From positions 1-60,954 of the IMG/VR virus record IMGVR_UViG_3300017776_000012: a DNA stretch of 60,954 nt. One strand, written 5' to 3'. The DNA is from a virus (lineage: Duplodnaviria > Caudoviricetes). A model generated the notes under the pieces. That model was not told the origin of the DNA. It saw only the letters and a list, made by a program, of their open reading frames with translations, and searched no databases. The position numbers were made by a program, and so were the translations under genes. Below, one piece after another: positions 124 to 60,954 of the stretch (within the stretch, counting starts at the first letter, position 1; every line of letters starts with the position of its first letter).

Positions 124-3100
124 AGAAAAGAATTCTCTTAACTCATTACCCATTCCATCAAAGGAAGAGATTCTTGACTTATACTTATTTAATCCTTCAT
201 CTGTAAGCATTCCCATAAATTCAACATTTAAAGTGGTTTCTTCATCCAACATTGATTTATGTAACGAACCCCCCTCGCTAAAGTACCCCTCCTTGTTGAG
301 GGCATCTAATCGGGCTTTGTCAATTAAAGGAGTCTCTAACTCGGATAACTTTACAAGATGATCATAAATAACAGAAGGCTGTTTGACAATAGAAGCTTTA
401 CGAATGTCCTCAACAGGCAGGATACCTGCAGCAACTAAAGTATTAGTGTCTAAAAGTCTTGACCCTTCCGGATCTTCAATAGAAGAAAGCATTTTACGTT
501 CAGTCAGCTTACCCAATGATCCGGCCCAATTGTCATAAGAAGAACCGCTATCGCTCATCATTTCTGCTCTATCTAATTTTAATTTAAGAGGAACAGGTCC
601 AGACATGTTAATAGTATGACCTTGAAGCATTCCAGACCTATAGCTTAAGTCTTGAACATACTCTGAATTAAGTTTCAGTTCTTCAGCCATCTCTTCTAAG
701 ATAGATCCTACTTCTTTCATTTTAGGATCTTCACTTTCTTTCATTGCTTTGATTTCAGATCTAGCTGAATCACCAGCACGCCCTGAGATAAGACTTTTAC
801 CTGCTAATTGCATAACATCGTCTAAGTCTCTCGATCGTTGCTCAGATCCCATAGAGTTTTCACCAAGTATTCTTCCAGATTTTCCTAATCGGCTATCATA
901 CTTTACAGTTCTAAATAAAGCTGCTCTTAACTTATCTCGATGAAAAGCCATTCTTACATTCAAGTCAGCATCTATGTTTTCTCCAATCTGAGAGAAAGTA
1001 GATAACTTGCTGCCATTGAAAGTACTTTCACTTGATAGAGAGTTATTATCGAATAGCTCAGCTATCATTTGAACAAGCATATACTTTGCATCCCCTGAGG
1101 TAAGGCTTACCTTAGAGTTAATAGTAGCCTCTGTATTAGATCCAGCCAGTGCTAGAGAGTCAATACCACCTTTAAGCTTTTGACCAATTGTTAGTTTTTG
1201 AGCCTTGGATACATAATTGCTATTTGTTGCGGCATCATACAACTCTTCCATACTATAAGTTTTTCCGCTAAGATCAGTATAATCTCCCTTTCTCATATAA
1301 GGAAGCACATGCTTTGCTAAGAATGCAATAGCCAGCTTAGGATCATCATCCACTAATTTTTGGAAATCCACTCTACCATTTGTAATTGTTTTTTGAATTC
1401 TTAGTTCAACATTATTACTAATCGCAGAGAGGGGCATAACTTCTGGCCTATCGTACTCACCGGGCTTAAGGCCTTCGCCAATGCTATTCTCTAATTCTAA
1501 AATTGCCTCATCAAGCTCTTTTACCTCTACACTATCCTTTGATTGACCAAATTCATAGATAAGAGCATCTCGTTCTTTTTTATACGCTTGAATTTGAGCC
1601 AACTTGCTTCCTGTACCCGTATTAAATTGAATGCTACCCTTACGATCCCCTAGATCGCGTAATGGCATTTCGGCCTTACCTAGAAGAACATCAGTCATGC
1701 TGTCTATTTGATTTCTATAGGAAGGATCTAAATCTAAAAATACTTTTCTAATATGCAAAATTTTAGCATATGAGAAGTTAATCATCTTCTGAAGGATGTT
1801 CTTAATAGCAGAACCAGAACCCGATACAGCTTTATCAGCATCTCTATACGCTGCTTCCATTGTTACTCGGTCTTTAAAGGTTCTTGCTTGCATATTATAA
1901 GAGAACAAAGCAGCAACAAACTCATCAGGATTCTCTAAGTAAAACTCAATCTGCCTTTTAGTCTTTCCATCTAATACGCCATTATTCATGGCTAAGACTA
2001 AACGCTTTACAAGCTCGGGAGCTTCTGGGTTATTAAGCATACTATTGGTCATATGCCATTCTGGAGATCCGTGATCATAAAGTCTAGCTTGAGCAGCATG
2101 AGCAATCTCATGAAGAATAACATCAACAGCTGTTAATTCTCTACCCAACCTACCTTTAAGAAGATGCAATGAAATGCCTGTCTTAGACGTATTGATAAAT
2201 CCAGCAGGGCTCCGTCCACCAAAGTTAGGTGCATCCAAACCTTGCTCTTTTGCGAGTTCAATGGCTTTTTGTTTAATGTTACTTGTTTCAAAGAAATCTA
2301 AGTTTTCAAGAAGATTCCCATCCATCTGAGCAAGAACAGCTCTAAGCATTTTAAGTTCTCTAACTGTAAGAGTACCGCTCTGCACTAAGGTTTCTAATTG
2401 CTTATCAATAGCCTCATGAGCTTCACTAGGCTGACCATTCTTATCTTTAATATGATTTCTAAAATTAGTCTTATTCATAAAGTACTCAGCATCACCCGGA
2501 GTACCATCTTCTTTATCGGGATACTCTCCCTTGTACAGCGGCCTATCGGTTTTAATGCCTGTATTAACATCTTGTTCGCTTCTAAGCATGATCTGCCTAG
2601 CAATCTGGACACCCTCATCAATTCTTTTCTTATGATCCTTTTGACGAGGAGTTCCGCCATCCTTGATGTTACCGGGCTCTCGGGCAGCCCGTAGCTCAGG
2701 AGATCCCGGCCTTCCCGGCTCATAATTTAACCATGCTTCATATAATTTTTGATAATCTACATTAGATAATTCTTCACCGTTTAAAATCTTAGTCTGCAGA
2801 TCAGGATCCTCTTGAAGCATCCTCAGTGCAACTGGAGCGTACCCTTGACGAGTTACACCATCACTAACAGCGATATCAATACCATGCTGCAGAATCTTTT
2901 GACTTGCTACGATTTCTTGAGCTGCTGCAAGAACTTTGTCAGTCGCCTTAATGCCATAAGCCGAAGCATATTCAGGATTGTTTAAAATCCTCATGTTAAT
3001 AAACTTAGGATTAATAAAGACAAGGCCTGCTAATCTTTTAGCATCTTTAATCTCAGCATCTGAAAGACCTCCAATCTCTTGAAGCTTCTCTATACTATTA

Positions 3101-6100
3101 CGACCAAAAATTTGCTCGCCTTCTCGGATTTCAGCCTCTTTGGCAACTATAGCTTTTCTAATTCTCTTAAAGTCATCAGCAGTAATATATTGCTTTTTAA
3201 TATCGGCTTTAATAGTTGAGGAGCGACCGCCCAAAATAGCACCTAAAGCTAGTGGTTCAATATCATCTAATCCACTAAGCATTTTTATGTCATCTAAACT
3301 CTTGACACCCAATACTTCTCTTAGCTCTTTTAAACCTACATATTCTACAGGCTCTCCGTCTTGCTTAACGCTAATGATGTATGTAGTGTCTTTGCCTTCT
3401 TTAAGGTTTAACCTGTCTTCTCCTGTAGGATCAAACATTTGACGATCTAACGTATTTAATCGCGAAGCGCTGACTTGATAAGGACTGATAAGATTTAAAT
3501 CTTCTACCCCTAATAGATCCTTTGCTGCAATCTCTTTTTGATCTAGGGTGGACATAATAACTCTATCTCTAAAGCTTTCGTCTTCCCACATTTTCTTTAA
3601 GTCTAAGTAGCGTGTCTGATGGAATGAGGATCGAGACACAACTCCGGGTTCTGCGTTTCTCTCTAAGAAGCCTAAGATTAATTGATTTTCATTATCAAGA
3701 TTTGTAGCAAACTCTCTAGTCTCATTTAAATGACTATCCATCTTAGCGTGACGAGCCTGCACTCTCTTTACATTATTATTTGCTAATGCAGAAGTAAAGA
3801 GCATATCGCCCACGTATCTATTAGAAGAAATCTGAAGAACATGTCTAGCCTGATTGGCACTAGCAACCCGTCGAGTCTGATGCCCAATGATCCTGCCTGA
3901 CATGATCTCTAATCCATTCATGGTAAATCTTACATTCTTATCAGCATTTGGAATCTCAAGATCAGAATGAACAGCTTCATGTAATCGCATGGCTTGATCT
4001 GCATTTAAAGTAAGCTCAATTAATCCATCAGTAATTTTAATCTTCTGATCTGGATACAACTCTGACATATGATTTTGTACAACTTTTCTAAGAACGGTAG
4101 CATCCTTAGCGTGAGTAATTGCAACCACAAAAGCCTCATTAGCGTCTAGGTTTTCAATATCAACATATTCACCATTTTCAGCTCTATACCCAACTGCAAA
4201 CCCTTCTTCAGGAGTGGCAAATCCCTTAACATTAAGTAACCCCCCTGCCTCAATGCGTTCACCTTGTTTCTCCTTTTTAGTAGGATCTTTAACAATAACT
4301 CTATTGTCCGAAGTTTTAAGTAAGAGAGCTCCTGTTTCTGGATCTCTGACATAGCCTATATCTTCTCCTCTAGTTGGAGCTGGCGCTGAGAATTGGGATG
4401 ATGTATCTAACTTATTGCCCTGTAAAGAACCTTGTTCGTCTACCAAGCCAACATTAGACCTACGCCGTTCGTCTTCAGATACAGACAATAAGGCTTCTCT
4501 TAGTGTGAGACGATTGCCTTGTTCGTCTCTTACTTTAAAGGTTCTGATATTCTGATAAGGATCGACAGAATTACTGTCATACGGATTATCTGCAGTGGTT
4601 TCAAAGTCCTCAACTCTTTGGTCTACAACCTTTTGCCATTTTTCTTCTAAAGCTGCAATACCTTTTGTTCTTCTAATCTTGGCTTCACTCTGAGTAATCT
4701 TGCTATCTTTAACTAGTCCGTCAAGAATTTGATCAAACTTCTTAACTTCCTCGTTAAACTTAATAACATTATTAACCCAAACCTGATGACCATAGATTAA
4801 ATCCCATCTTGGTTCTGTTTTATCGACAACTCTTTCAACAGTTCTTTCAATAGTTTTACCAGTAGGAATTTCTTCATCTACGAATTTACCAGTTCCCGCA
4901 CGGCTCTTAGCTCTTTCAGCTAACAGATAATCTAATAGAGGTTCTTTCTTTCCTCTTTTAACTTTAGCAGGAATCGTAATACCTAAGGCTTCTGCCATTT
5001 CAGTTAATTTAGTTTTAGTATATTTTCTATTACCTAAATAAGTTTCTTTAGGAAGATCTAATGTTTCTGCTTTTTCAAGATTGTTTCTTGCATCCTCTTG
5101 AGGAACCTCTCTTCGGACAGAAATCATTTCAGGCTCACTGATAGTTTCAGTAACAGTTTGTTCTCCACCTAATAAATCATCTAAGCCATACTTACGGGCA
5201 TGCTTAGTAAGAATACTTTGAACAATAATATCTGTTTGTTCAGGACTAGATTGAACACCGAGTGTTTCACTTCTACTTAGAGCTTCCATACTAATATCAA
5301 CATCAGCTAAGAATTCTTCATCCGTAAACTCAACCCGATTTCTTTCATCAATATCAAAAAGTACTCCATTCTCTTGGAGGTTTGTATCAATAGTAGTTGA
5401 ATCTCTTTCTGCCAAAAGCTTTCTCTGGACAACAGCTTTCTCGCCATCTGTTCCAGTTGCAAGCTCTTGAGTATAGCCCATAGTCTTAACTTGATGAACT
5501 TCCCTGAGTGCAGGAACACCTAATACATTATCAATATGCTGTGTGGGGTGAATAGCTCTAAAGCCAAGGCCACCGCCCATAGTTCTAGGAGTTTGAGGAG
5601 TAAGCTCCATCAATTTATTTTCAGAATTATTTTGTAATTCTCGTTCTCTTAATCTTTGCTCGATCTCAGGATTTTCTAAATCATCTAATTTTAAATTACC
5701 ATCCTCATCGTACTGCGAGCTCCAAGGATTACCAAATCTTTTACGATACTCTGAATCAGTAGTATCAACATCCTGTTCTTTAATTCTGTTAGACGCTGCT
5801 TCAATGTCATCACTTTGAGCTCTCCACTCTCTAAATGCCTGCTCTTTGGTCATAGGAGGAGTCTGAACAAGAGTACCATCCGCTGTTTTCTGCAACGGTG
5901 CATCAAACTCAGGAGAGATTGTAATAAGAGCATTCTTAAGAGCAAGCCTTCTGATCCTAATTTCTTCTAACTTAGTAGCAGCTGCAATGATATCATCTAC
6001 TGAAGCATCTGGAGAAAGAACACGTTGGCCTTTCTTAGCAAGCTGCTGATTAATCTTACGCCACTCTTCTTGAAGTTGGGTTCTATCTTTAGCCAGTTCT

Positions 6101-9100
6101 TTAATGCGATTAGCAATCTGCTCCCGCTTGGTCATATTACCCATATATTTAATATCGTAAATACCTCCAGCAAAAGCTTTACCCTGATCTACATGCTTTG
6201 CATACCAGTCTGAATGAGACAGTGCTCCTTCAGCATCAGGGTTGTTAGCATAAAGCTCTACAAGCTCAAGATCTTCTCTGGCTTCAGCCTTGCTAGTCTT
6301 AAAGGTTGCATCAGATTCTTCTACAAACTGAACGGGATCCAGAATAACTCTTCTACTTTTCTCACCCTTATGGTCCATCTCCTTAGTATGAGGAGCCACA
6401 AACCGGGTACGCCAGTCCATTAAGTTATTGATATAGATAGCATCATCTGTATTCTCTAAAGCTCTTGAAGGACTCATGCCACCAGCATCTTGACCAGTCA
6501 TCTTAAGAATATGCTTAACACTGGGGTCATCTCTAGCTACAGTAAATGCAGTTCTATTTAAAGCCTGTGTTGTACGATCAAAGAAGGTAAACTTAGATCC
6601 CGTAATAAGACTTTCAAGCTCTTTAATCTTAGGACCATCTTTACTTTCTCTTGCTTTCTGTAATTCATCAATAACAGTAAGCTCTTGCATAAACCTAAGA
6701 CGAGCGATATCCATTGCATCGTCCATAGTTTCGGGGCTTTTGGCTTTCTGTAATTTTTCGCCTACACCCGGAATAGTGCCAACTAGATCAAACTCTTTTT
6801 TACGGAGCATAGATGTTGCAAAAGCTTCAATTTGTAAAGCTCTAAAAATCACATCTACTTCTTTTGCCATAGTAGCTTTATTTTTATTGGCTAGCTTGGC
6901 AAGCTTAGTAGCGTGATCCAGCATAACCTTAATGCCATCAGGGGAATTCCACTCCAGCTTATCATCCAAGATTGCTTTAGGAAGTAAACTATTTCTTAAA
7001 CCATCAGGATCTAAAACAGCTTTCATTCTTCCTGCAGAATCTGGAATACCAGTAGCCTTTTCAACTAATCCCATTAAGGCTCTATCTTTACCGCCAAGCA
7101 TAGCAGTAGTTAATTCTTCAACAACTTGATCGTAGGTAACACCTTCTTTTTTAGCCTGAGCTAACATTGCATTTTTGTACATTGCATTATCAGGATCATC
7201 AAAGAAAGATCTAATTGAGTTTTTAACTGCTTTTCTCTTAGCGTTATAAGGAACAATCATTAAGGGCTTTTTAGCAAAGCTTCGTCCAGCTTTACTCCCT
7301 CTTACCCAGAATGGACGCTCAGTATCAGCATTATTCATTGCATATAAAGCTCGGCGTACACCTATGCTCATGCTGCTATCTCCTGCCTTATCGGGCAGCT
7401 CTGCACCAATCTCATAAGTTAAGTTCTGATAAAAGTCGATATCAGTTGAACCATCTGCTTCCACTAGATCCTTAACTAATTGTAATGCTCCTTCAGCAAC
7501 TTCAGGCTTATCAGAATTTAAAGCTTCAAATAATTGGACTCTTCGTCGGAAAGCGATACTTTCGGCAACACCGTGCTTAGAGCCATTGGTAGATCCATCA
7601 GCCTGTGCAATAAGTCGAGAGCCTTTACCCTTAGAACCCTTAGCTGCCTTAGCTACATCGTCTCCTCTTTCAAAGGCTCTTAAGATCTCAGGAGTCATTT
7701 CGGGATACAACCAAGCAGACGCATCTAAGATTGCATGGGCAATGCTATAGTTATTGTCTGGGTCTGCAAGAGGGATAGCAACAGGGAACCCACCGCTAGG
7801 ATCTGCTTCAGCCCAAGGGTTATCTCTGCCTTCTTCAATGTCATACCTGAAGTATGCTCTTGTGTTGATATCTTCCATGCGAATGCCAAACTGTCCGGGC
7901 AAGGCTTTAAGATCATCATGAATAAAGCTATAATGAGTTGGAGGTAAATCCAACATTTGTTCTACAGTTCGATCAAGGTAAAACTCAATACTCTCTACTC
8001 TATCTAAATCTGTTCTTAGTGGAGGAGGAATCTGATCAGCATGGATAGTTAAGGAAGCTCTATCTTGGGCTGTAGACATATTTTGAGTGAGATTACCATC
8101 TTGAATAAACTTAATAACGTCCTCTTCAGAAGGACCCTTAGGATCATCAAAGTCTAGTTCATTGATTCTACGGACTTTATCCTCATAGATAATCTGATCT
8201 AAAATCTTAGCAATTTGCTTATCAGTTCCGGGTTGAACCGCAGAGAAATCTTTTACTTCTTCACTATTTTTAAACTTAATGACATTAAAAGAATTAGTGT
8301 CTTCATCAAGCTCAATAACCTCAGTATTGTATCGCTTACTGCCATCTACATTATCTCTAAACAAAGAGCGAAGGGCAGCTGCCATTGTATCTGGAGTTTG
8401 GAAATCTAACTCACCATTGCCAAAGATTGCAAGTGCTTTAACGCCTTTTGCTTTTAACTCTGGGCTTATTGGCAGATAGGGAATTACTTCAGCTTCAATA
8501 TACTCAATTGCATTCTTAGTATTTAATAAAGAGCTTCTTGAGAGGTTATCTCCCTTACGGCTACTGAGAGTAATTAAACTTTCTACAAGTTTATTGACAT
8601 AATCTTCTTCATTTGCAGCACCTCTAACTTCAGTACCAGCTTTATTCTTAGCTTCCTGAGCTTCTTGTTTTCTTAACTCAGTCAATAACTGAGATTGCTC
8701 AAGACGTACTTGTTGCGGAGTCTTGCTTGCAGCTGTAGCAGCAGAACTTTGCTCTATTGCCATGTCACGTTGCAGTCCAGCTCTTTTGGCTCTTAACTTG
8801 TCTAATGCTTCCACTTCTTTATTTAGAAGATCTTTAACAGTTTCAAGAGTTTCGCCTTCTTGTAAAGGTTCTTTACCAGAAGCTCTTTTAGTTAAAGATT
8901 CTATTCTATCTTTAGATTTAGCAACACTAGCATTAATTATGGTATACCTTGCAGTGTACTCCTCATTCAGATCTTCTGCTAACTGACGAGTTTTCACATA
9001 TTGAATACCTAAGTCTCTTCTTCGTTCTAAGATCTGAAGAACTTGTTCTAAATTAAAAGTATCAAATTCTCTAGTCGTTCCTTGAGATGCTAACGCTTGT

Positions 9101-12868: not shown

Positions 12869-13180
12869 TCACTGTTGGTTTCTTAAGTTCTGTAATAAAA
12901 ACATGTTATTCATGTTTGCAATTTCTTGAGGCTTCTGACCTCTATCTAATAACAGATTATAATCCCGCTCATTTAATTGACCGCGACTAGAGTCTTGTTT
13001 GACATTAACATTAGCAGGAGCTGGATGCCTTTTGATTGTAGGCCTAGATCCTTCTTCTGCAATGAGCTCTACTAGTTCATCTTGCGAGTTCACTTGCATA
13101 GGCTCAATGGTAATTTTTTTACCGTCTAATGGATTTAACCATGTATTTGCGCGTGGTGTTGGTAATAAAAAAGTTCTCAT
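12869..13180 (-). CDS. Hypothetical protein in ejection-protein operon
   Basis: 103 aa ORF; ATGA overlap with the upstream gene; its stop abuts the RBS of the giant gene. Confidence 0.7.
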   Translation of the reverse strand: MRTFLLPTPRANTWLNPLDGKKITIEPMQVNSQDELVELIAEEGSRPTIKRHPAPANVNVKQDSSRGQLNERDYNLLLDRGQKPQEIANMNNMFLLQNLRNQQ

Positions 13181-16100
13181 TCTTCTTCCTCTAGGCTCCT
13201 ATTTAATCGATCAAGGTCTGCTTGGGTGTATGAACTGCCCAGCGTGGCACTCTTCTTTCTAGCCGGAGAAGAAAAGTCTACGTTACCTTTATTAATGGAT
13301 TCAATTCCCCATTGACTTACTGGGATAAACTCACCTTGTAAGGTTTTAGGGAAGTAAAAAGGAAAAGTATCTTGAATGCCTTCGTTAACGCTAGTTGTTG
13401 TTATTGAAAATGTTGTTACGTTTTGTTCAGATTGATTAACATCAAATGAATAGTTATCTGGATTTTTCCACAAACTATATCGTAATGATGGAGTACCAGA
13501 TACTCCTGCGGTAGTTCTATCTAACATGAAGTACATATTTTTCACAGATAGACCTCTTGCCATCTCTACAAGCGCCTGATCAATTTCTTTGGGACTAAAA
13601 AACTCTGGATCGGCACGCTTTCTTTTATAGATTTTAAATTCATCTAAAATATCAAGTTCTTTTGCTAAGGTTTCGTCTAAGTTGTCTTTTAAAAACATCT
13701 CAATACGAAGTGCTCTCTCTTGTCTAATTTCTGCCTCAGGAAAAACTAGAGATAACCCATGCTCTAACACAGTTGTTGTCCGTCTTACTTTGTTTTGAGA
13801 TATAGCATCAGCAATAGCACCTATGTTAGCCTGCACAAGGCGTCTGCCATAGCGAGAGTCACCTACGCCTCTACGTTGATTTCCCGTAAGGTTTGCTTTA
13901 GGGTCGGCATACTGAGCATCTAAAGCCTGCATCGTTCGATGAGCGTGCCTCAATGTACCTGCATCAGAAGCACTGTCTCGTTTAATTATTAGAGGTGTTT
14001 TATTCTCTTGATTTATAACTATAAACGTACCATTTTCTTCATTAAAAGTAGTAGATAAAGCAGCAATATGTGAATCCTGAAGGATTTGATAATAAAGCCT
14101 AGTTTCTCCGTCCACATTTTGATCTGCTTGCAGTCCAGCTAGCTCATCTTTGTTTCTACCTACATTAATCCGTATCTGTCTCTGAAGCTCTCTTTGATAC
14201 TCTTGATTCACTTCAGAGTTAACGTTTGTAAGCTCTGTAATAACTCTACGATTAATACCTTTGTCTTCAAAATGCTTTACAAGACCAGAGAACATGGACT
14301 TATCTGTTCCCTCAAATGTTTTTGTAAATTGTCTTCTAAGCTGTGCCGCGTCTGATCCTTTTGAATCAATCATTCCTAGATAGGTCCTAGCCTTTGCAAC
14401 ACCACCCTCTTGAAGTGTAGAGGGATTTTGGAGAAATGCCATACTTGCCTGCATAAAGGGATTATTATAATTATCTATATCCTGAGATAAACTCATAATA
14501 TTACTTTCTAAGGTTCCCGGAGCAGCTAGTATTAGCTTAGCAGTGACATCAACTTGTGCAGCTAAAGATGTATTTCCTGCTACTTGGCCATTAAGAAAAG
14601 TGCTTCCTTCTATGTGATTTCTATTATCCTGTTCAATAGTGATAGAAGCATCAGCTCCACTTCTGACCGCTACAGCCTCTTCTGTTATACTAAAAGTATT
14701 TCTAACCATTTGTTCATACTCGCCGAAAAAACTATAAATTTCTTCTTCATTCCCAAGCTGTCTATTTAACTGCACTAAAGCGGAGTTAATAAATACTCTA
14801 GCCTCATTGGTAGTAAATACAGCGTTATCTTGTAAAGTAGAACCATCTTTATTAAACGTAATATCTTTATTCTCGTTGCTAGCAAAACTTGCTAAGATAT
14901 CACGAAGGGCTGAAGACTGAGCATCTGTGTCCATTAATATATTGACACCGTTTTGAAGTCCGGTACTCTCACTAGCCAGTCTAGCGTTTTCTAACTCATA
15001 AACATAAGCAGCTGCGGCAATATGTCCTCTTAAGTGTGTAATTATTTCACCTTTAGTTTCAGCGATTTTTGTGATTTTATCGCTCTCGCTTAATCCTTCG
15101 GTTTGATTTATACCATTTACAGTTGTATTATATTCTTCCTTTAAAACCTTAAACAATTGAGGATCCATGCGGAGAACACCAGCAAATTCAGTTTGAACAT
15201 CATCAAACCATTGAGGACTAAGATCCCCTCCGGGGGCAACAAAGCGATTGTTAAATCCTCTTAATACCGCAATAGAGGGCCTTCCTGAATCCTTAGCTAC
15301 TCCTACAGGAGTAACATCTGTTTCTTTAGTATCTAAATTTTGATTTAAAAGCTTTGCCATATCTCCGGGCTCTGCAGTAGAACTTCCAGACATACCTCGC
15401 AGTAAACTCTCATCGTGGCTAGTTAATACTTTTACAATAGACTGCTCTAAAGGATTCAGCAAAGGCATTTCGGCCCTGATAGCTAACACAGTACCTCTCC
15501 TGTTTGGTTCTGTTTGAAGGGTATTAGCTCTAGCTTCAGTAACAAGAGCCATCTCTCTGTCAACTAAATTATCCCAAGTTTTCTTTGCTGCTTCGTAAGA
15601 ATCAAACTTAAAAATGCCTTCAATCTTAGAAGGATCATCACCAATTTGAATCTCATTTAAATCAACCTTAGAGCCATCTCGATTTGAAATGCCAGGATAA
15701 ACAAAGTATTCTCCTTCAGATTCTCCAATCTGCCAGTCATGGACCACAGGCTGACGTTCATTAGGATTAGACGTACTTTGCCATAGGTTAACTCCTACGT
15801 CTACTTTTTCACCCAATGCATCTTTAACTGAGTATTGCCTATAAAGAAAGCTGCCGTTGCTATCAGAGGCAAAAAGACCATTAACTGTATCCATCTCTTC
15901 AGGAAAATAATTGGTTAAGAGAGGAGCAATATTCTCTAAAAAGTATCCCTGAAGAGCTTCAGGATTACCTCTAAATTTGCCTTCAGATGCGTTTAATAAT
16001 GATTCTACTGTAGTCAATACAGGAGCAGCTAATTTTTTCTTAACTTCATCAACAACGCCCTGTCTAAATTCTACATACTCTGCATTAATATCACCAAGAA

Positions 16101-17424
16101 TACTTTGAAAAATATCAGCATCTTCGTTTTTATCTAAACCTGCAGCTATAAATTCATTATAGGTAGGAGAAATAGATTCTAAAGCTTTGTCGCCATAATC
16201 TTCAGTAAAGGTTGTAATGTCTTCAGGCACGAATGTAGTCAAGGCATTAAATCTATTTACGCGATCTATGCGATTAACTTCGGCTTCTTCTAAAGTAGCC
16301 CCTTCATTTGAAGGAATTCCTGTTAAATAAGGTTTATCTAATTCACCTTGTACAAGAGAGGCAAACCTTTGAGCCCAAGAAATAGATTCCCCCCTAGAGT
16401 TTATTGAGGGAGTTTCAGCTAATAAGGCAGCAGCTTCAGAACTAATATCTCTACCAGCATCAATAGCTCCCTGTAACGATAATGTCTTAGACTGCAATCG
16501 CCTGCTGTTTACTTCAGCCCGATCTGCTTCCCGGATTATTTTTTGTGCATTTTGTACAATAGGAACTAAAGCTTCATCTAAAGTACTGTTTAAAGCATCA
16601 AGAGTAAACTGATCTAAAGCTCCTTCTTGTTCTAATTGTTCTAATTCAGGCTGTACTAATGCTGTATAAAAACTATTTCCAATAGCAAGAAAATCATAAT
16701 TACCGTCTTTATCTGGAACAACATTAGTATCTGCAAAAAGGCTTCTTAAGCCTTCTGTATACGCAGGAGTACCCGGAGCCGCACCAATTTTGTCTTGAAT
16801 GCCTTGAGTAACTGCAATAGAAAGCTGCGACTGGGCAGCAGTTAAAGCTCTTTTTTGATTGTTTGCATTAATAGTATCGATTATAGGTCTTGCTTGAGGC
16901 TCTAATTGTTCCCAGACTTGTCCGCCTTCCCACGCATTCTCTAAACTTTTATACTGCTCCATAATCCCATCTTCATCGAAGGGATTGTTTTTAACATAAT
17001 CTTTAAACTCACTAAATCTAGTTTCAGCAATAGCGTCAACATTTAAGCCAGTAGCATTGGCATGCCTCTTAGAAAACTCTTTATGAGCACTGGTTCTATT
17101 AGGGATAACACCTCTACTTGCGACATCTTGATACCGATTAAGGTTCCGTGAAGCTACATCTTCTGTGGTATATCCGTCAATGATGTCTTGGTTCTTTTTA
17201 GTTTCAAGTTCATCTAATACAGAATAACCTTTATTTTCAATAGCCTTACTGAACACATCAAAGGTTCTTTGAAAGTTTTTATCAAAGGCATAGAAGTGGT
17301 CTAAGGCAGATACCTTAGGAGCAACTTGAAGAACAGGAACAGTCTCAACGCCTTGAAACGGAGTTACAGCCGTAGGAACCTTTGCTGGCGTAAATTTATT
17401 ATCTTGTCCAAAAATTATGCTCAT
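13177..17424 (-). CDS. Internal virion protein, T7 gp15-like position (1415 aa)
   Basis: Long helical-composition ORF between the gp14-like and gp16-like genes; call is from synteny only. Confidence 0.65.
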   Translation of the reverse strand: MSIIFGQDNKFTPAKVPTAVTPFQGVETVPVLQVAPKVSALDHFYAFDKNFQRTFDVFSKAIENKGYSVLDELETKKNQDIIDGYTTEDVASRNLNRYQDVASRGVIPNRTSAHKEFSKRHANATGLNVDAIAETRFSEFKDYVKNNPFDEDGIMEQYKSLENAWEGGQVWEQLEPQARPIIDTINANNQKRALTAAQSQLSIAVTQGIQDKIGAAPGTPAYTEGLRSLFADTNVVPDKDGNYDFLAIGNSFYTALVQPELEQLEQEGALDQFTLDALNSTLDEALVPIVQNAQKIIREADRAEVNSRRLQSKTLSLQGAIDAGRDISSEAAALLAETPSINSRGESISWAQRFASLVQGELDKPYLTGIPSNEGATLEEAEVNRIDRVNRFNALTTFVPEDITTFTEDYGDKALESISPTYNEFIAAGLDKNEDADIFQSILGDINAEYVEFRQGVVDEVKKKLAAPVLTTVESLLNASEGKFRGNPEALQGYFLENIAPLLTNYFPEEMDTVNGLFASDSNGSFLYRQYSVKDALGEKVDVGVNLWQSTSNPNERQPVVHDWQIGESEGEYFVYPGISNRDGSKVDLNEIQIGDDPSKIEGIFKFDSYEAAKKTWDNLVDREMALVTEARANTLQTEPNRRGTVLAIRAEMPLLNPLEQSIVKVLTSHDESLLRGMSGSSTAEPGDMAKLLNQNLDTKETDVTPVGVAKDSGRPSIAVLRGFNNRFVAPGGDLSPQWFDDVQTEFAGVLRMDPQLFKVLKEEYNTTVNGINQTEGLSESDKITKIAETKGEIITHLRGHIAAAAYVYELENARLASESTGLQNGVNILMDTDAQSSALRDILASFASNENKDITFNKDGSTLQDNAVFTTNEARVFINSALVQLNRQLGNEEEIYSFFGEYEQMVRNTFSITEEAVAVRSGADASITIEQDNRNHIEGSTFLNGQVAGNTSLAAQVDVTAKLILAAPGTLESNIMSLSQDIDNYNNPFMQASMAFLQNPSTLQEGGVAKARTYLGMIDSKGSDAAQLRRQFTKTFEGTDKSMFSGLVKHFEDKGINRRVITELTNVNSEVNQEYQRELQRQIRINVGRNKDELAGLQADQNVDGETRLYYQILQDSHIAALSTTFNEENGTFIVINQENKTPLIIKRDSASDAGTLRHAHRTMQALDAQYADPKANLTGNQRRGVGDSRYGRRLVQANIGAIADAISQNKVRRTTTVLEHGLSLVFPEAEIRQERALRIEMFLKDNLDETLAKELDILDEFKIYKRKRADPEFFSPKEIDQALVEMARGLSVKNMYFMLDRTTAGVSGTPSLRYSLWKNPDNYSFDVNQSEQNVTTFSITTTSVNEGIQDTFPFYFPKTLQGEFIPVSQWGIESINKGNVDFSSPARKKSATLGSSYTQADLDRLNRSLEEEE

Positions 17425-17426
17425 TT

Positions 17427-18467
17427 TTAAATTCCTTGTCCGCCAATTGGCGCACTGTATGAAGTACCTGTAGGTGAGTTATATGTATAATAGCCTGAAG
17501 GTATTCCTCCGCCTGTAACTACTGAGTCACCCCCCGGTAAAGTTACTGTATTTGTTGCGGGGGATCCCCCAAAACCTTGTCCCCCTGCATTGACGTATGC
17601 TCCAACACCGCCCGCAATACTACCTGCAACGCCCATTAACATCTGAGAATTTGCAGCACTCTTAGCCGCTTGATAGCCTGTTGCGATATTCTGAGTTTCA
17701 GCTTTCTTTGCAATCTCAGCATTGCTTCTAATAAGATCTGCCATTGTTCTAATGTTTGCAGCTTCTGCATCAGCAGAGGCTCTTAAAGAGGCTGAGCTAT
17801 CATATAGGGTAGGCTTTCTACCGGGGACAAATAATGATTTTGAAGACTTTCTTGCTTTAACTTTAATGCTGCGTCTAGCATTTCTTTCAGCTGATCTCAG
17901 TTGAAGCCTTGCAGTAGTATCGTTATTTATAATCTCTTTATCTAAACTATTATAGGCTGCAGCTTTGTACCTCATGACTGAAGAAGAGTAAGGATTAAGA
18001 TTTCTTTTATTAGCAGTATTAGAGAAAGCGTTTAGAGATTTACTAAACTGTTGGTTTGCTGTAGTGTTGGCTTTTTCTTGTTGCATTAAAATGCCCATCT
18101 GCTGATCAGCAAGCTCGTCAGCTAGACCTAAAGGAATGCTTACTCCTCCGCCAGCTCCTGAAGAACTTTGAAAATTCTTCTGCATGACTGCCAGTTGTTC
18201 TCTGTGACTAGCATACTTATAGTTAGCCATAGCAACTTTATTGTTCATATTCTCTTGAGCAATAGCAGCATTAGTCTGTGCAAAGATTCCTTGAATCTGC
18301 ATAGCTTCTTCAGTATCTGCTTTTTGCATAGTCATTTGATAGTTAGCTGCAGCAGCCCGTCTTCTATTTTCTGCCTCTGCTTTTGCTGCTTTTTTAGCGG
18401 CACTGCTTCCAAAAATGCTAGAAGCAATACCTGCTCCTGCTACAATACTTGCTGCTACAATTGGCAT
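17427..18467 (-). CDS. Internal virion protein, T7 gp14-like
   Basis: Ala/Gly hydrophobic N-terminus (MPIVAASIVAGAGIASSIFG), then Ala/Gln coiled coil, then a C-terminal GVAGSIAGGVG segment. Confidence 0.7.
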   Translation of the reverse strand: MPIVAASIVAGAGIASSIFGSSAAKKAAKAEAENRRRAAAANYQMTMQKADTEEAMQIQGIFAQTNAAIAQENMNNKVAMANYKYASHREQLAVMQKNFQSSSGAGGGVSIPLGLADELADQQMGILMQQEKANTTANQQFSKSLNAFSNTANKRNLNPYSSSVMRYKAAAYNSLDKEIINNDTTARLQLRSAERNARRSIKVKARKSSKSLFVPGRKPTLYDSSASLRASADAEAANIRTMADLIRSNAEIAKKAETQNIATGYQAAKSAANSQMLMGVAGSIAGGVGAYVNAGGQGFGGSPATNTVTLPGGDSVVTGGGIPSGYYTYNSPTGTSYSAPIGGQGI

Positions 18468-18468
18468 A

Positions 18469-18921
18469 TTAGTCTCCTAAATATGATATAATATCTTTAA
18501 TCTTATTGTCAAGCTCCTCTGTGTAACAAAAGAAATGAGGTAGCTTCATAAGCTTCTTCTTCTGCTCCAAAAAATGCTCTATAATGTCTAAATGAGTCTG
18601 CTGATTAAATCGAATCTTTTCATTTACAGTCTCCATGCTCTTTAACTGAGCTGCTTTATCTTCACGTTCAAGTATGACAAGTCGTTGTATTTTCTTCCTA
18701 AAAGGCCAAGGATCCCAGAGTTTAACGACAACATCCCTATAGTCTAGGGGCCTTATCTCCTCATCCCACGGCATTTCATAGAAGCCGTTAGGGTTGTCTT
18801 TCTTATCCACATACCAGGGGAAAGACTCACCTACTACAGGCAACCCGCTCAAATGAGCTTCGTGCATTGTAAAAGATGTACCTACTCTAGGGCCAATACC
18901 TGTCACAACTTTCATTACCAC
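18469..18921 (-). CDS. Sulfotransferase-like P-loop protein
   Basis: VVTGIGPRVGTS resembles the PAPS-binding GxxRSGTS loop; downstream DNPNGFYE motif. Confidence 0.6.
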   Translation of the reverse strand: MVMKVVTGIGPRVGTSFTMHEAHLSGLPVVGESFPWYVDKKDNPNGFYEMPWDEEIRPLDYRDVVVKLWDPWPFRKKIQRLVILEREDKAAQLKSMETVNEKIRFNQQTHLDIIEHFLEQKKKLMKLPHFFCYTEELDNKIKDIISYLGD

Positions 18922-20666
18922 TCCCGTTTATTTGATCTCGTTTTAATTTTATCCCAACCAATGAGACGAAGAGGAGCCCTATTGTCTTTCTTAAGCACCT
19001 TAACAGCACCAGAAAGACCTCTAGAGATCATGGCGGACCTACGCCCATCATTCTCCCACCTGTCATACTCATCTTGTTTGTTCTTATGTTCCTGAGCAAC
19101 AATCATCTTATCTACATCAACGCCAAGCATGTCGGTATAGTAGCTTACAGAATGAGCTAAGGCATCAATCCGGTCATCTCGCTTCAATGCTCCTCGCCGT
19201 CTAGAGATGCGAGTTAATTGGATCTGATTCTCTTGATCGCTCAGAACCCTAGGGTCCATGACAAGTCGCCCATTGGCAATTACTGGTTCAATGGTATCTA
19301 AGATTCTCTGCTCTTTATGACCATGAACCCTAAACCCGTCGATGCCTACATGACTGCAATACTTAGCGATAATAGGATGTAGGATGGTTCCAAACATACC
19401 ATCACCAAAGTTCTCTTCATACCGAATAAGCTTGACCTTATATTGCATAGCCAGTTCGGCGATCTTGACAAGAACAGTCTCATCATATCCGCCATCTAGC
19501 CCTAACATCTCATGAATACATATGTATCCAGTAGGGGTAGCTGAGGCAACAATAACACCTGTCTCATCATGACCCCTACCTGAGGGGTCTACATGGATAG
19601 TAGTAATAGTATAATCTTCAAATGCCTCAGACTTGTACATAGGGTGATAAACTTTATCCCCAGACATCCCAACACTATTGATACTCTTATGAGGATTGGA
19701 ACGGGCATGCTGAACTTTCTGGTGGAAGGAATCTAAGCCTACATCCGTACAGATAATATCCTTCAATTTAAGAGGATACTTCTCTTCATCTGAGAGAGAG
19801 GTGTCAAGCAGGAACTGGAGCGCATAATTTGCCGGTCCAATCTTAGCCAGCCTCTCATCTAAAGTTTCTCTATCGAACCTCTCAGGCTGCGTAGGATCGC
19901 CCGGACTAGCTTCGAGCTCTACCATACGTTCTGTGATCCACGGGCTGATGTGCTCCATCCTAGTGGGTATAGTGGGGTCAGGAAACTCTGCCGGGAACTT
20001 AATGAAGGGATATCCTGAGGCTGCCAGCTTATTGTAGTTAGAATCACGGGTATGGGGAGTACCTAGGAAGATAACCCTACCGCCCTTATTACGGATAGAT
20101 TCAAATTCATGGATCCGACCTAACAGCTTGTCCCTCATCTCCTGAGTATCGCAGTTGCCCCGAACCTCAAGGTCATCGCCCACGATATAGTCAGCGTGCC
20201 GACCAATGATCTGGGAGGTAATACCTGCAGCACTTACCGACTTGTCCTGAGATACCTTAACTCGACATGCCGTATTAAAGGCCATAGCGTTATCGGTATC
20301 ATCATCCCCCGGAAGGAGATGGTTCATGAAGGGGACCGCAGTCAGAATGCTTCTCGTCATAGAGATAAAATCAATAGCCTTCTGAGCTGTAGCAGAAGTG
20401 ACCAAGATGGTTGCATTAGGGTCACGTAAGAGCCACCACGAAGCAAGCATAGATGTGATAACACTCTTACCTGTACCACGACCTGCAGCCAGAACCATAT
20501 CATTATCGTGGTTCTGAAGGGAATCCATAATGCCATACTGAATAGGGGTTGGTTCCCCAAATCCCATGTATTTCATTACGTAATAGCCGTAGTTCCTAAA
20601 GTCCTGTATAGCCTCATCAGGCACATTAGATGGGATCATTCTCTCATCTAGTTTATTGTTAATCAT
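18915..20666 (-). CDS. terL: Terminase large subunit (T7 gp19-like)
   Basis: AGRGTGKS Walker A, GRHADYIVGDDLE Walker B, FLGTP, HVDPSGRGHDETG nuclease motif, DDRIDALA. Confidence 0.95.
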   Translation of the reverse strand: MINNKLDERMIPSNVPDEAIQDFRNYGYYVMKYMGFGEPTPIQYGIMDSLQNHDNDMVLAAGRGTGKSVITSMLASWWLLRDPNATILVTSATAQKAIDFISMTRSILTAVPFMNHLLPGDDDTDNAMAFNTACRVKVSQDKSVSAAGITSQIIGRHADYIVGDDLEVRGNCDTQEMRDKLLGRIHEFESIRNKGGRVIFLGTPHTRDSNYNKLAASGYPFIKFPAEFPDPTIPTRMEHISPWITERMVELEASPGDPTQPERFDRETLDERLAKIGPANYALQFLLDTSLSDEEKYPLKLKDIICTDVGLDSFHQKVQHARSNPHKSINSVGMSGDKVYHPMYKSEAFEDYTITTIHVDPSGRGHDETGVIVASATPTGYICIHEMLGLDGGYDETVLVKIAELAMQYKVKLIRYEENFGDGMFGTILHPIIAKYCSHVGIDGFRVHGHKEQRILDTIEPVIANGRLVMDPRVLSDQENQIQLTRISRRRGALKRDDRIDALAHSVSYYTDMLGVDVDKMIVAQEHKNKQDEYDRWENDGRRSAMISRGLSGAVKVLKKDNRAPLRLIGWDKIKTRSNKREW

Positions 20667-58737: not shown

Positions 58738-60831
58738 TTAGTTACTCCTAAATTTATCTACGTTTTGTTGCATACGATCAATTATCTGTTGCCGCATTTC
58801 ATTGGCTTTTGCTCGATTGTGCTTTCTAACTTGCTCTCGATCTAAGAACATCATATTTCTTTGATTATCATATTTCATCTGTTCTCGCAACGTACGCGGT
58901 TTAGTACGATCTCGGTAGATTCTTGAAAACATTGAAGAAAGAATTGGAAGAGTTTCATAGAAAGAGTCAGTAGTCGATCGGCTATACGGTGAGTCACCGC
59001 CTATAGCGGTTTCACCTAAGAAATCAACACCAGTTCCAATGAGGTTAAAGGTTTTATCAAAGACTCCTTCAGCTGGGCTTCCAAAAGGATCAAAAGGAAT
59101 TAAGTCATTTGTGTAATAAGGCTGCTTACGCCCCAAAACATCTTCATTAATAAAACGACTTTTTTGAGCTTGCTGTGCTAGATATCCTAAAACTGCCGTT
59201 CCATACTTACCCCCAAATATAGGCATTCGCATCGCTTTTTTAGCTGCAAAGAAACCGTAATCATTCTTAGCCTCGTGTATAACTTGCTCTGAGCTCTTAC
59301 CTCTAGCCATTTCCATAAGTGTTGTATAAACGGTATCCCAAACTAGGTGACTGAAATAGATTCCCGCTAATCTACCGATGCCTTTACTAGCCAGTCTTGA
59401 TGCCCCTATGAAAGTTTTTTGCTCATAGAAAGCTCTGACCCAAGACATGTAAATGTTTTGGAATGCATTGAATCCGGTATTGTTTAATAGCGGTCTATCA
59501 AAAATACGGGGTTCCACATTAAAAGCATCTACACGCATCACAACAAAGGTGTTCATAGCATTTCTAAATCTGTCCTGTAACGCCGCATCTTTCCGTAAGA
59601 CGCTAGCTTGAGCCTGTAAAGACCTAGAGTCGCTAGCATCCATAGTATGTCCGATTCTAGCCTTTCTGTTTAATTCAGTAGCTCTTTGGCCTTTAAGTCT
59701 AGCTTCTTTAAATGTTCTAGCATAATCAATATATCTAGTTTCTACTGCGTTAGAGTTTTTTATGGTAGCTTCTAAGATAGGTAATAATTCTCTATCCAAT
59801 AAACCGGATTTTTGTAATTCTAAGGCTGTTGAATAGTCAATACCAGCTTTAGTAGTAGCCTGTTTAAATCTCTTCTGAGCTGCTTTTCTATTAGCCCTAT
59901 CTGAAGACATAATGTTATCCATATTAGACTCAGGTAAACCAGTTGTTGACAATGAGTCCTTAATGCTTTCTAACTCTGTAATAAGCTTTTCCAAACGACC
60001 ATCGATGACATACCCAATAATCTTATCATGAGCTTGTAATCCTACTAATTCTTTATTCGCATTAATCATCATTTGAGAAGGTTTTCCGATTAAACCTACA
60101 GCAGCTTTAGCTCCTTTTGCTAAAGAACTTCTATCTCTGCCGCCTAGCTCATGCTCACGGGTGTCAACTTCTAAGTTAATATTAGTCCTACTTATAGCTT
60201 CTGCTCTTAAAGTTTGTAGAACAATTGAAGTTTGTTTTAAGGCTCTTGACCTGTCAATAGGTCGCAATCCTTGAGTAAGACCTTTAGCTATCAGGCTAAA
60301 TGCTGCTACAGGATGTGTGACCATCTTGCGCATTAGGGGAAGAGTACTTTGGCCTGTTTCTTCTAACAAAGCTCCGGGTAAGTTAGCACCATAATAAATA
60401 AATGTCAGAGGATTTAATACAGACAAAGCGGTATCATATGCTGCATCAGATTTATCAAAAGATGAGCGATAGCCTAAAATATTTTCTCTAGCTCTATTAA
60501 AGTATTCTAAACTTTTTCTCAAAGATTCTTTTGTTTCAGGCTCCATAGGAACTTGATCAGTAAAATCACTTAATGCTTTAGTAAGTGTTCTTGTGTTTAA
60601 ATTCTTCACACCTACTTTATTACCTTTATCTCCTATTTCAATACTCTTACCTATTGCAGCAGTAAAGTTTAAGGAATCTGCAGCATCTGCCCCAATACCT
60701 CTTGCCATACCTGAGGATAAAATAACAGGATTATAATCAAGCATTGCTGATAAAGTTTCATCTTCAAAGATATCATTAATTTCAAAATAATCTAAATCTC
60801 CCGGATCAAAACGAACTGAGTTTTTAGCTAC
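58738..60831 (-). CDS. 3' part of the giant gp16-slot protein (continues from position 1)
   Basis: Frame is open from 60831 into the track ORF at 60744 and in phase with 12858->1; C-terminal FQNIYMSW...hydrophobic helix arrangement loosely resembles gp16 C-termini. Confidence 0.85.
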   Translation of the reverse strand, partial: VAKNSVRFDPGDLDYFEINDIFEDETLSAMLDYNPVILSSGMARGIGADAADSLNFTAAIGKSIEIGDKGNKVGVKNLNTRTLTKALSDFTDQVPMEPETKESLRKSLEYFNRARENILGYRSSFDKSDAAYDTALSVLNPLTFIYYGANLPGALLEETGQSTLPLMRKMVTHPVAAFSLIAKGLTQGLRPIDRSRALKQTSIVLQTLRAEAISRTNINLEVDTREHELGGRDRSSLAKGAKAAVGLIGKPSQMMINANKELVGLQAHDKIIGYVIDGRLEKLITELESIKDSLSTTGLPESNMDNIMSSDRANRKAAQKRFKQATTKAGIDYSTALELQKSGLLDRELLPILEATIKNSNAVETRYIDYARTFKEARLKGQRATELNRKARIGHTMDASDSRSLQAQASVLRKDAALQDRFRNAMNTFVVMRVDAFNVEPRIFDRPLLNNTGFNAFQNIYMSWVRAFYEQKTFIGASRLASKGIGRLAGIYFSHLVWDTVYTTLMEMARGKSSEQVIHEAKNDYGFFAAKKAMRMPIFGGKYGTAVLGYLAQQAQKSRFINEDVLGRKQPYYTNDLIPFDPFGSPAEGVFDKTFNLIGTGVDFLGETAIGGDSPYSRSTTDSFYETLPILSSMFSRIYRDRTKPRTLREQMKYDNQRNMMFLDREQVRKHNRAKANEMRQQIIDRMQQNVDKFRSN

Positions 60832-60954
60832 AGTTTTTTTAGTATAAAGGTACTGACGAATATCTGCAGTGCCTTCAAACTGATGTCCTCCAGAAGCATT
60901 GCTTCTAACAACAGCTGGAGCCTCGGCAGATCGGTCTATTTTACTTTTTAATAC
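60832..60954. repeat. Terminal direct repeat, right copy
   Basis: Identical to 1-123. Confidence 0.95.

Follow-up and report, generated by a model that had tools for sequence, protein, structure and literature searches.

The viral record IMGVR_UViG_3300017776_000012 (Duplodnaviria; Caudoviricetes), taken here over its full 60,954 bp as the window, carries on its minus strand a giant gene whose product of 4983 amino acids (aa) accounts for a quarter of the genome. The two termini of the record are an identical 123 bp (1-123 = 60832-60954) that sits within this gene, and the record closes across the overlap. Beyond what an initial annotation of the window had reported, the open reading frame (ORF), which starts at 12858, passes the window edge at position 1 and continues in frame on to 60831..58738. 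A 668-aa ORF at 58738-60744 is the C-terminus of the giant protein and no separate gene. Since uninterrupted ORFs of 5011 and 4943 aa are present in related contigs (L006/L007 and L010/L011), the reading across the record ends is no assembly accident. The giant protein contains the core of a T7-type single-subunit RNA polymerase (RNAP), followed by a stretch of 945 residues that is no chance gap. We tentatively favour the view that its catalytic palm has the permuted motif order C-A-B, that a conserved module of unknown fold follows, and that the whole is an ejected, N4-like RNAP in a T7-like phage. The positions of all features are collected in Table 1.

Table 1. Features of the giant gene and associated genes in the window; residue numbers refer to the giant protein.
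Feature	Position (nt)	Strand	Residues (aa)	Sequence	Basis or remark
Giant gene, first 4286 codons	1..12858	-			start codon at 12858; resumes at 60831
Giant gene, last 697 codons	58738..60831	-			across 123-bp terminal overlap
Upstream module, putative counterpart of last third of T7-like RNAPs (fingers end, loop, HSxD, motif C)	7873..8448	-	1471-1662		hhalign
Candidate motif C (H1647, D1648)	7906..7935	-	1642-1651	HYSFIHDDLK	before motif A
Counterpart of T/DxxGR strand and PQ turn, degenerate	7693..7737	-	1708-1722	AILDASAWLYPEMTP	low-confidence end of 95% alignment
Motif A (D1754)	7570..7614	-	1749-1763	LIAQADGSTNGSKHG	hhalign and family conservation
Motif B (R1859, K1863, Y1871)	7237..7293	-	1856-1874	KAGRSFAKKPLMIVPYNAK	hhalign and conservation
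Fingers helices, sole confidently modelled part	7051..7437	-	1808-1936		AF2 pLDDT 64-92
Upstream anchor	6934..6957	-	1968-1975	LEWNSPDG	aligned with LEWETPIG of RNAP1
945 residues between anchors, conserved family-specific module(s)	4114..6948	-	1971-2915		conservation
Invariant D-W-R-T/S-R	6391..6423	-	2146-2156 (motif 2148-2152)	MDWRTRFVAPH	9/9
Downstream anchor, invariant H2916/D2919 past hydrophobic strand	4084..4131	-	2910-2925	FVVAITHAKDATVLRK	
Motif C of the initial annotation (D2944)	3970..4044	-	2939-2963	KIKITDGLIELTLNADQAMRLHEAV	Asp in 4/10
HExxH, zincin-like	2083..2124	-	3579-3592	VDVILHEIAHAAQA	H3583, E3584, H3587 in 9/9 covering
Two Cys-free upstream genes, 1415 aa (13177-17424) and 346 aa (17427-18467)	13177..18467	-			T7 internal-virion-protein position
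827-aa T7-type RNAP, free-standing	42343-44826				phrog_414
641-aa T7-type RNAP	48633-50558				phrog_414

The giant protein belongs to a rare family. Four close relatives are 54-83% identical to it and 4870-5003 aa long. An exhaustive HMMER pass over 1.84 billion representative proteins returned 9 proteins at E<=0.001 and added two clades, represented by P0052/P0051 at ~30% identity and P0055/P0057 at ~25%. The five metagenome loci found all closely resemble proteins already collected, and scans of viral contigs yielded one related contig only. Full-length relatives span 4546-5011 aa, and the three clades (A, B and C) are mutually 23-29% identical. Conservation is given below over ten family sequences, nine of which cover most sites; P0057 is a fragment that does not include the upstream motif site.

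The polymerase core was recognised by profile comparison, by structure prediction and by conservation. When residues 1690-2000 were compared by hhalign with an alignment of 42 T7-like RNAPs, a match with a probability of 95.9% (E 5.7e-9) was obtained, which paired QADGSTNGSKHG with QMDGSCNGIQHW of the T7-like enzymes at motif A and RSFAKKPLMIVPYNA with RKCAKRPCMTYAYGV at motif B. In the nine sequences that cover them, D1754, G1755, N1758 and G1759 of motif A are kept throughout, as are R1859, K1863 and Y1871 of motif B, and 23 of the 247 columns of the A-B core are invariant across the three clades. The PHROG family of T7-type RNAPs, phrog_414, matches residues 1808-1980 only (E 1.6e-5 with the protein, 4.7e-8 in a six-frame search), covering no more than profile positions 543-677. 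An AlphaFold2 (AF2) model of residues 1440-2010 built with a nine-row alignment has a mean predicted local distance difference test score (pLDDT) of 47.6, and only its fingers are usable; a single-sequence model of residues 1467-2000 (mean pLDDT 43.8) was unusable. The modelled fingers superpose by VIA-align on T7 RNAP (3e2e_A, residues 569-688) with Z 8.8 and a root-mean-square deviation of 2.7 Å over 94 residues, and on human mitochondrial RNAP with Z 8.2. The next, unrelated row reached Z 5.4, and 9pnq_A was found at rank 21 with Z 4.4. We conclude that the fingers, like both motifs A and B, are of T7 type, and that the palm-fingers core, the assignment of D1754 to motif A and the LEWNSPDG anchor are sound.

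By direct searches the core is hardly recognised. Pfam gave no match to PF00940/RNA_pol at E up to 10 with the protein or its six frames, PDB sequences returned nothing relevant with the protein, a four-row core profile or a five-row full-length profile, and Foldseek against PDB returned nothing at E<=0.001. A tblastn search with residues 1650-3050 found no match in 50,697 phage records. The T/DxxGR sequence of T7-type RNAPs is not present before motif A: the strand that aligns with it reads LDASAW, with W, L, M or I at the arginine position, and the canonical arginine is gone. The tryptophan of the upstream anchor, W1970, is present in only five of nine sequences.

The initial annotation had read this protein in the canonical motif order, with about 900 residues inserted where the promoter-specificity loop should be, and its measurements hold. 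From W1970 (codon start 6951) to H2916 of THAKD (4113) there are 946 codons on the minus strand, and the corresponding distance is short in the two other RNAPs of the genome, namely 54 residues in the 827-aa enzyme (W674-H728) and 51 in the 641-aa enzyme (W507-H558). The 25 residues between D2919 and D2944 compare with 24 and 23 in these two enzymes and with 22 in the virion RNAP (vRNAP) of phage N4. Under this explanation THAKD would correspond to HSQD of T7, motif C would be K-I-T-D-G (D2944) in the manner of K-I-F-D-G in N4, and clades B and C would have lost the catalytic aspartate. Several observations speak for it. H2916 and D2919 are invariant in all ten sequences, and by eye their segment is like the HS.D of T7-like RNAPs and the THAGD of the phage PEV2 vRNAP, which reads THAGDS...NIHDA at the corresponding place. 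The N4 motif C, as quoted in the initial annotation, was confirmed in the N4 vRNAP sequence, which reads TLKIFDGMNIGL...ANEAV around D951; within the N4 polymerase region, residues 2900-2975 find their best local match at this motif. The order of elements before the stretch, from the T-like strand through motifs A and B to W..P.G, is likewise canonical.

The residue on which the canonical order depends, however, is not conserved. Whereas the motif A aspartate D1754 is invariant in the nine covering sequences, position 2944 is an aspartate in four sequences of ten and E, S, G, K, K or A in the rest. The glutamate is that of P0003, with SDEG at this place and an overall identity of 79%; the other five residues belong to the two other clades, in which the 8 residues just before are also deleted while motifs A and B are intact. 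Local divergence is fast: of the 11 residues of KIKITDGLIEL around D2944, no more than 2 are shared by all five close relatives. Profile comparisons of this block stayed at the level of noise. hhalign of residues 2880-3100 against the T7-like profile scored 17.4 (E 0.27), a score reached by 6 of 60 column shuffles, and against nine N4-like polymerase regions the block aligned elsewhere (E 0.23), with nothing at motif C. The local match to N4 mentioned above, a pairwise Smith-Waterman result, was equalled by 76 of 300 shuffles, and segment profiles of N4-like motif C did not see the D2944 site except weakly in one of the ten sequences. At the canonical place for motif C there is an aspartate in a minority of the family and no histidine. 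If the enzyme works in all clades, D2944 cannot be its second, conserved carboxylate. Of the split palm with an insert that the initial annotation had proposed, the T7-type core, D1754, the aligned LEWNSPDG and the H2916/D2919 pair are supported; D2944, the moderately kept W1970 and the downstream profile match are not. An insertion in the specificity loop appears doubtful, because the motif C placed past the stretch varies within the family and the core is preceded by a better candidate. We regard the canonical order as unlikely, though conceivable for clade A.

The better candidate for motif C lies upstream of motif A. The tetrapeptide I/L-H-D-D/E at residues 1646-1649 (HYSFIHDDLKAL) has its H and D in nine of nine sequences, from all three clades, and the whole of HYSFIHDDLK is identical in the five close relatives. 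This stretch was picked by an automated pattern scan as the most conserved pattern of the family, and the module around it has the highest share of invariant columns among the polymerase-related parts (23/192, compared with 23/247 for A-B). In an hhalign comparison of residues 1450-1700, residues ~1471-1662 were placed onto residues 609-769 of RNAP1 with a score of 31.3 (E 0.0036), and the most confident columns paired HYSFIHDD and its helix with SFSMIHDS, the T7-like motif C, and its helix. None of 360 column shuffles (60 + 300) reached this score (null mean 16.2, standard deviation 2.6, maximum 28.7). Clade A and clade C, used separately, found the same target region with E 0.012 and 0.075. 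When segment profiles of T7-like motif C were scanned over the whole proteins, the upstream site was the best in seven of the ten sequences (5/5 of clade A, plus P0055 and L010 of clade C); clade B yielded none, nor did P0057, a fragment in which the site is missing. We consider the alignment of the upstream module to T7-like motif C suggestive. An HD-domain phosphohydrolase was also considered for I-H-D-D and rejected, as there is no Pfam match and the upstream His is not conserved.

These observations can be joined into a model. The invariance of motifs A and B at 23-29% identity indicates that the enzyme works in all clades. A working enzyme needs a second conserved carboxylate, and, as D2944 would then not qualify, the order C-A-B is the simplest reading. 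The second catalytic carboxylate would then be D1648 rather than D2944, carried by the invariant I/L-H-D-D/E hairpin ~100 residues before motif A, and the module of residues 1471-1662 would correspond to the final third of a T7-like RNAP. This would amount to an internally permuted palm, as could arise by a tandem duplication whose outer parts were lost. The 945 residues past LEWNSPDG would represent one or more conserved downstream modules and not a specificity-loop insertion, and ITDG would be a decaying relic. The duplication model predicts a counterpart of the segment from motif B to W..P.G in both modules, and both have it. In the infected cell, the first genes of the entering DNA would be read by the polymerase core, with the 641-aa and 827-aa enzymes acting next. 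The model in its fullest form is somewhat more speculative than the permuted palm as such. It would make this the first internally permuted (C-A-B) active site in a T7-type DNA-dependent RNAP, produced by tandem duplication and reciprocal decay in a virion-ejected family of ~5000 residues, with H2916/D2919 and ITDG as relics, and would give the phage a host-independent transcription programme of three polymerases.

A number of results weigh against a permuted palm. hhalign gives the upstream alignment a probability of only 9%, about ten slices were tried, such that the shuffle result needs correction, and clade B by itself does not reproduce the alignment. The N4-like profiles are blind to the upstream module (E 0.38), and pairwise Smith-Waterman comparisons with shuffles were significant for neither the upstream nor the downstream block. 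In the nine-row AF2 model, pLDDT is below 50 throughout residues 1576-1765, both aspartates included. Between the upstream motif and the strand equivalent to T/DxxGR lie only ~60 residues, which leaves no space there for a thumb, and the missing arginine in that strand counts against the permuted order as well. The invariance of H2916/D2919, the H..D-to-D spacing of 25 that fits T7-like and N4 enzymes (22-24), the N4 motif C as the best N4 match of residues 2900-2975, and the resemblance of THAKD to THAGD of PEV2 all favour the downstream block of the initial annotation; H2916/D2919 and the D-W-R-T/S-R motif stay unexplained by a C-A-B palm. Self-comparison of the upstream and downstream blocks (E 0.43 and 0.25) gave no support for duplication. 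A complex prediction of residues 1530-2010 with residues 2890-3070 gave an interface score (ipSAE) of 0.00 in two runs with a partner pLDDT below 50, and speaks neither for nor against binding. Finally, the location in the virion is inferred from gene position and composition, with no internal-virion-protein family matched.

Two further explanations have to be weighed against the permuted palm. The polymerase-like core could be a relic that no longer polymerises and, within an ejection protein, now binds nucleic acid or has a structural role, with all transcription carried out by the free-standing RNAPs or a host enzyme. The lack of a Pfam RNA_pol match at any threshold tried, the absent T/DxxGR arginine, the loss of the canonical motif C in two clades and the presence of two T7-type RNAPs in the same phage speak for a relic; yet D1754, R1859, K1863, Y1871 and the upstream H-D are invariant at 23-29% identity, which would be hard to keep without catalysis, and we consider a relic rather improbable. 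Least probable of all is an active site in three segments, in which the 945 residues interrupt the polymerase, H2916/D2919 correspond to H784 and D787 of T7, and the catalytic hairpin comes from the upstream I-H-D-D: H1647/D1648 and H2916/D2919 are indeed both invariant where D2944 is not, and the upstream module has an arginine (PPxLR) at the position of the HS.D histidine, so that the histidine could come from downstream, but the H..D segment, the helix and motif C are contiguous in T7-like enzymes and the upstream module already has a counterpart of the helix, which would put two segments in one place, and this reading is the least parsimonious.

Whichever arrangement applies, the 945-residue stretch is a genuine part of the family. 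It was found in every full-length relative, and 70 of 925 columns are invariant across the three clades, with conserved blocks that include TFFDRTTQ, DWRTR, KG.KSRR, TMGGGLG.R.IHPT.HID and EDERRRSNVG. Searches with the stretch in Pfam, PHROGs, PDB sequences, the ESM Atlas and the T7- and N4-like profiles gave no informative match; the best PHROG was phrog_21669, of unknown function (E 0.0015). The ESM Atlas gave no usable match with this stretch or with residues 2880-3130, and hhalign of residues 900-1500 and 2000-2900 against the T7-like profiles gave nothing. The invariant D-W-R-T/S-R, ~280 residues past motif B, is the best look-alike of T/DxxGR in the giant protein; when the segment profile of T7-like T/DxxGR was scanned over whole proteins, this was the one site matched, in clade B. 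The slice that contains it is not significant, as 8 of 60 shuffles reach its score. A second polymerase copy running from D-W-R-T/S-R to THAKD was considered and rejected, since neither motif A nor motif B was found a second time and the slice does not rise above noise. A role of the 945 residues in DNA or promoter engagement is no more than a possibility. By eye, an HeH (SAP/Rho-N-like) segment, KLTEMAEALGITIPAKVKRGKKEPLLDYLL, can be seen at 4909-5022 (residues ~2613-2650), for which Pfam gave no match. Three close relatives carry it, P0004/P0005 have lost it by deletion, and a similar segment stands before motif A in P0055 (residues ~1745-1790).

Composition and gene order both bear on the role of the giant protein. 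It contains no cysteine in 4983 residues, and neither do any of its 8 relatives or the N4 vRNAP (0/3500). The products of the 1415-aa and 346-aa upstream genes are also free of cysteine; the free-standing RNAPs contain 16 in 827 and 13 in 641 residues. A 2023 paper uses the absence of cysteine as a mark of N4-type virion polymerases (PMC10747016). The giant gene itself lies between the terminase and tail-tube genes and the virion structural genes. The cysteine-free composition and the gene order make an internal virion protein, ejected into the host like N4 gp50, the most likely identity of the giant protein. PHROG internal-virion-protein families gave no match at E up to 0.1 in six pieces of the protein, a run outside which residues 1001-3050 fall, and Pfam and PHROG searches with the C-terminal block and other pieces returned only sub-threshold rows or rows of unknown function. 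The most conserved block of the giant protein, with 30 of 200 columns invariant, includes an HExxH motif (VDVILHEIAHAAQ). Its segment has a weak SprT-like Pfam match (E 0.016, below the cut-off), and the motif may mark a zincin peptidase, which might serve self-processing.

The virus is a 60.8-kb T7-like podovirus. The rest of the genome is on the same strand as the giant gene and has a T7-like layout. The gene order starts with the 641-aa and 827-aa T7-type RNAPs (phrog_414, E 1.7e-51 and 6.2e-173), followed by a gp2.5-like single-stranded DNA-binding protein, a primase-helicase, a family A DNA polymerase and an exonuclease, then by portal, scaffold, capsid, tail tube A and B and the large terminase, and ends with the 346-aa gene, the 1415-aa gene, the giant gene and virion structural genes. 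The match of the 641-aa RNAP to phrog_414 is confined to the C-terminal 55% of the profile (positions 372-809) and a short segment at 281-309, so that most of the N-terminal domain is missing; its gene is surrounded by small early-type ORFs. The large terminase gene (18915-20666) stands between the tail-tube and internal-protein-like genes, unlike the T7 order. In the contig L010 of the most distant clade (209-20248), two ORFs, of 329 and 1268 aa, stand ahead of the giant gene (4943 aa), which matches the three-gene arrangement seen here. A repeat scan of the genome for promoters revealed no clear promoter family.

Among known systems, the N4 vRNAP (gp50, Schitoviridae) is similar in being a giant single polypeptide (3500 compared with 4983 aa) that is free of cysteine and has its polymerase in the middle third, and by eye motif A (ADG.TNG) and motif B (AK.PL...Y) of the giant protein are nearer to N4 than to T7. 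The N4 enzyme is carried in the capsid, is ejected, and initiates at hairpin promoters of early genes. The residues D559, R666, K670, Y678, D901 and R904 of the N4 vRNAP lie at the expected positions in its sequence. Hardies et al. describe the N4 vRNAP as embedded in a homologue of internal virion protein D (PMC4819975), and further background on N4 was drawn from PMC4496689 and PMC13492108. Alignment by hhalign to nine N4-like polymerase regions covers only motifs A-B of the giant protein (probability 66%, E 5.6e-5), all other slices of the giant protein gave nothing against these profiles, and N4-like segment profiles gave scattered matches over the giant proteins. There are clear differences from N4. 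The distance from motif B to motif C is ~270 residues in N4, and in the giant protein it would be 1073 to D2944; the N4-like vRNAPs are without I-H-D-D before TxxGR, whereas the giant protein is without TxxGR. The genomic context also differs from that of the Schitoviridae, as the genome is T7-like, not N4-like, and encodes two further T7-type RNAPs.

With the T7-type RNAPs (PF00940, phrog_414) the giant protein shares motifs A and B, the D-F/I-Y turn, W..P.G and the fingers fold. It differs from them in falling under every curated threshold, in having no recognisable N-terminal domain or thumb, and in its degenerate T/DxxGR, the lack of a conserved motif C at the canonical place and the H-D before motif A. 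The trio of consecutive, cysteine-free late genes of rising size (346, 1415 and 4983 aa) resembles T7 gp14-gp16 (internal virion proteins B to D), although there is no sequence match, and the large terminase precedes the giant trio, where T7 has the terminase after the fibre gene. The motif order C-A-B in a right-hand polymerase is described, in PMC8310298 and PMC4666646, for the palm-permuted RNA-dependent RNA polymerases of birnaviruses and permutotetraviruses. These belong to an unrelated family that uses an RNA template, and they serve as an analogy for topology only. Full-text literature searches found no permuted T7-type RNAP and no description of the giant-protein family.

N4-like phages are known to carry a polymerase in the capsid within an ejection protein. 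The giant protein probably brings this N4-type solution to a T7-like phage whose genome also encodes two T7-type RNAPs, and its motifs are arranged in a non-canonical way. If the enzyme is active, either its palm is permuted, or its active site is split by ~945 residues and the catalytic aspartate has been replaced in two clades. Either outcome would widen the range of forms taken by single-subunit RNAPs.

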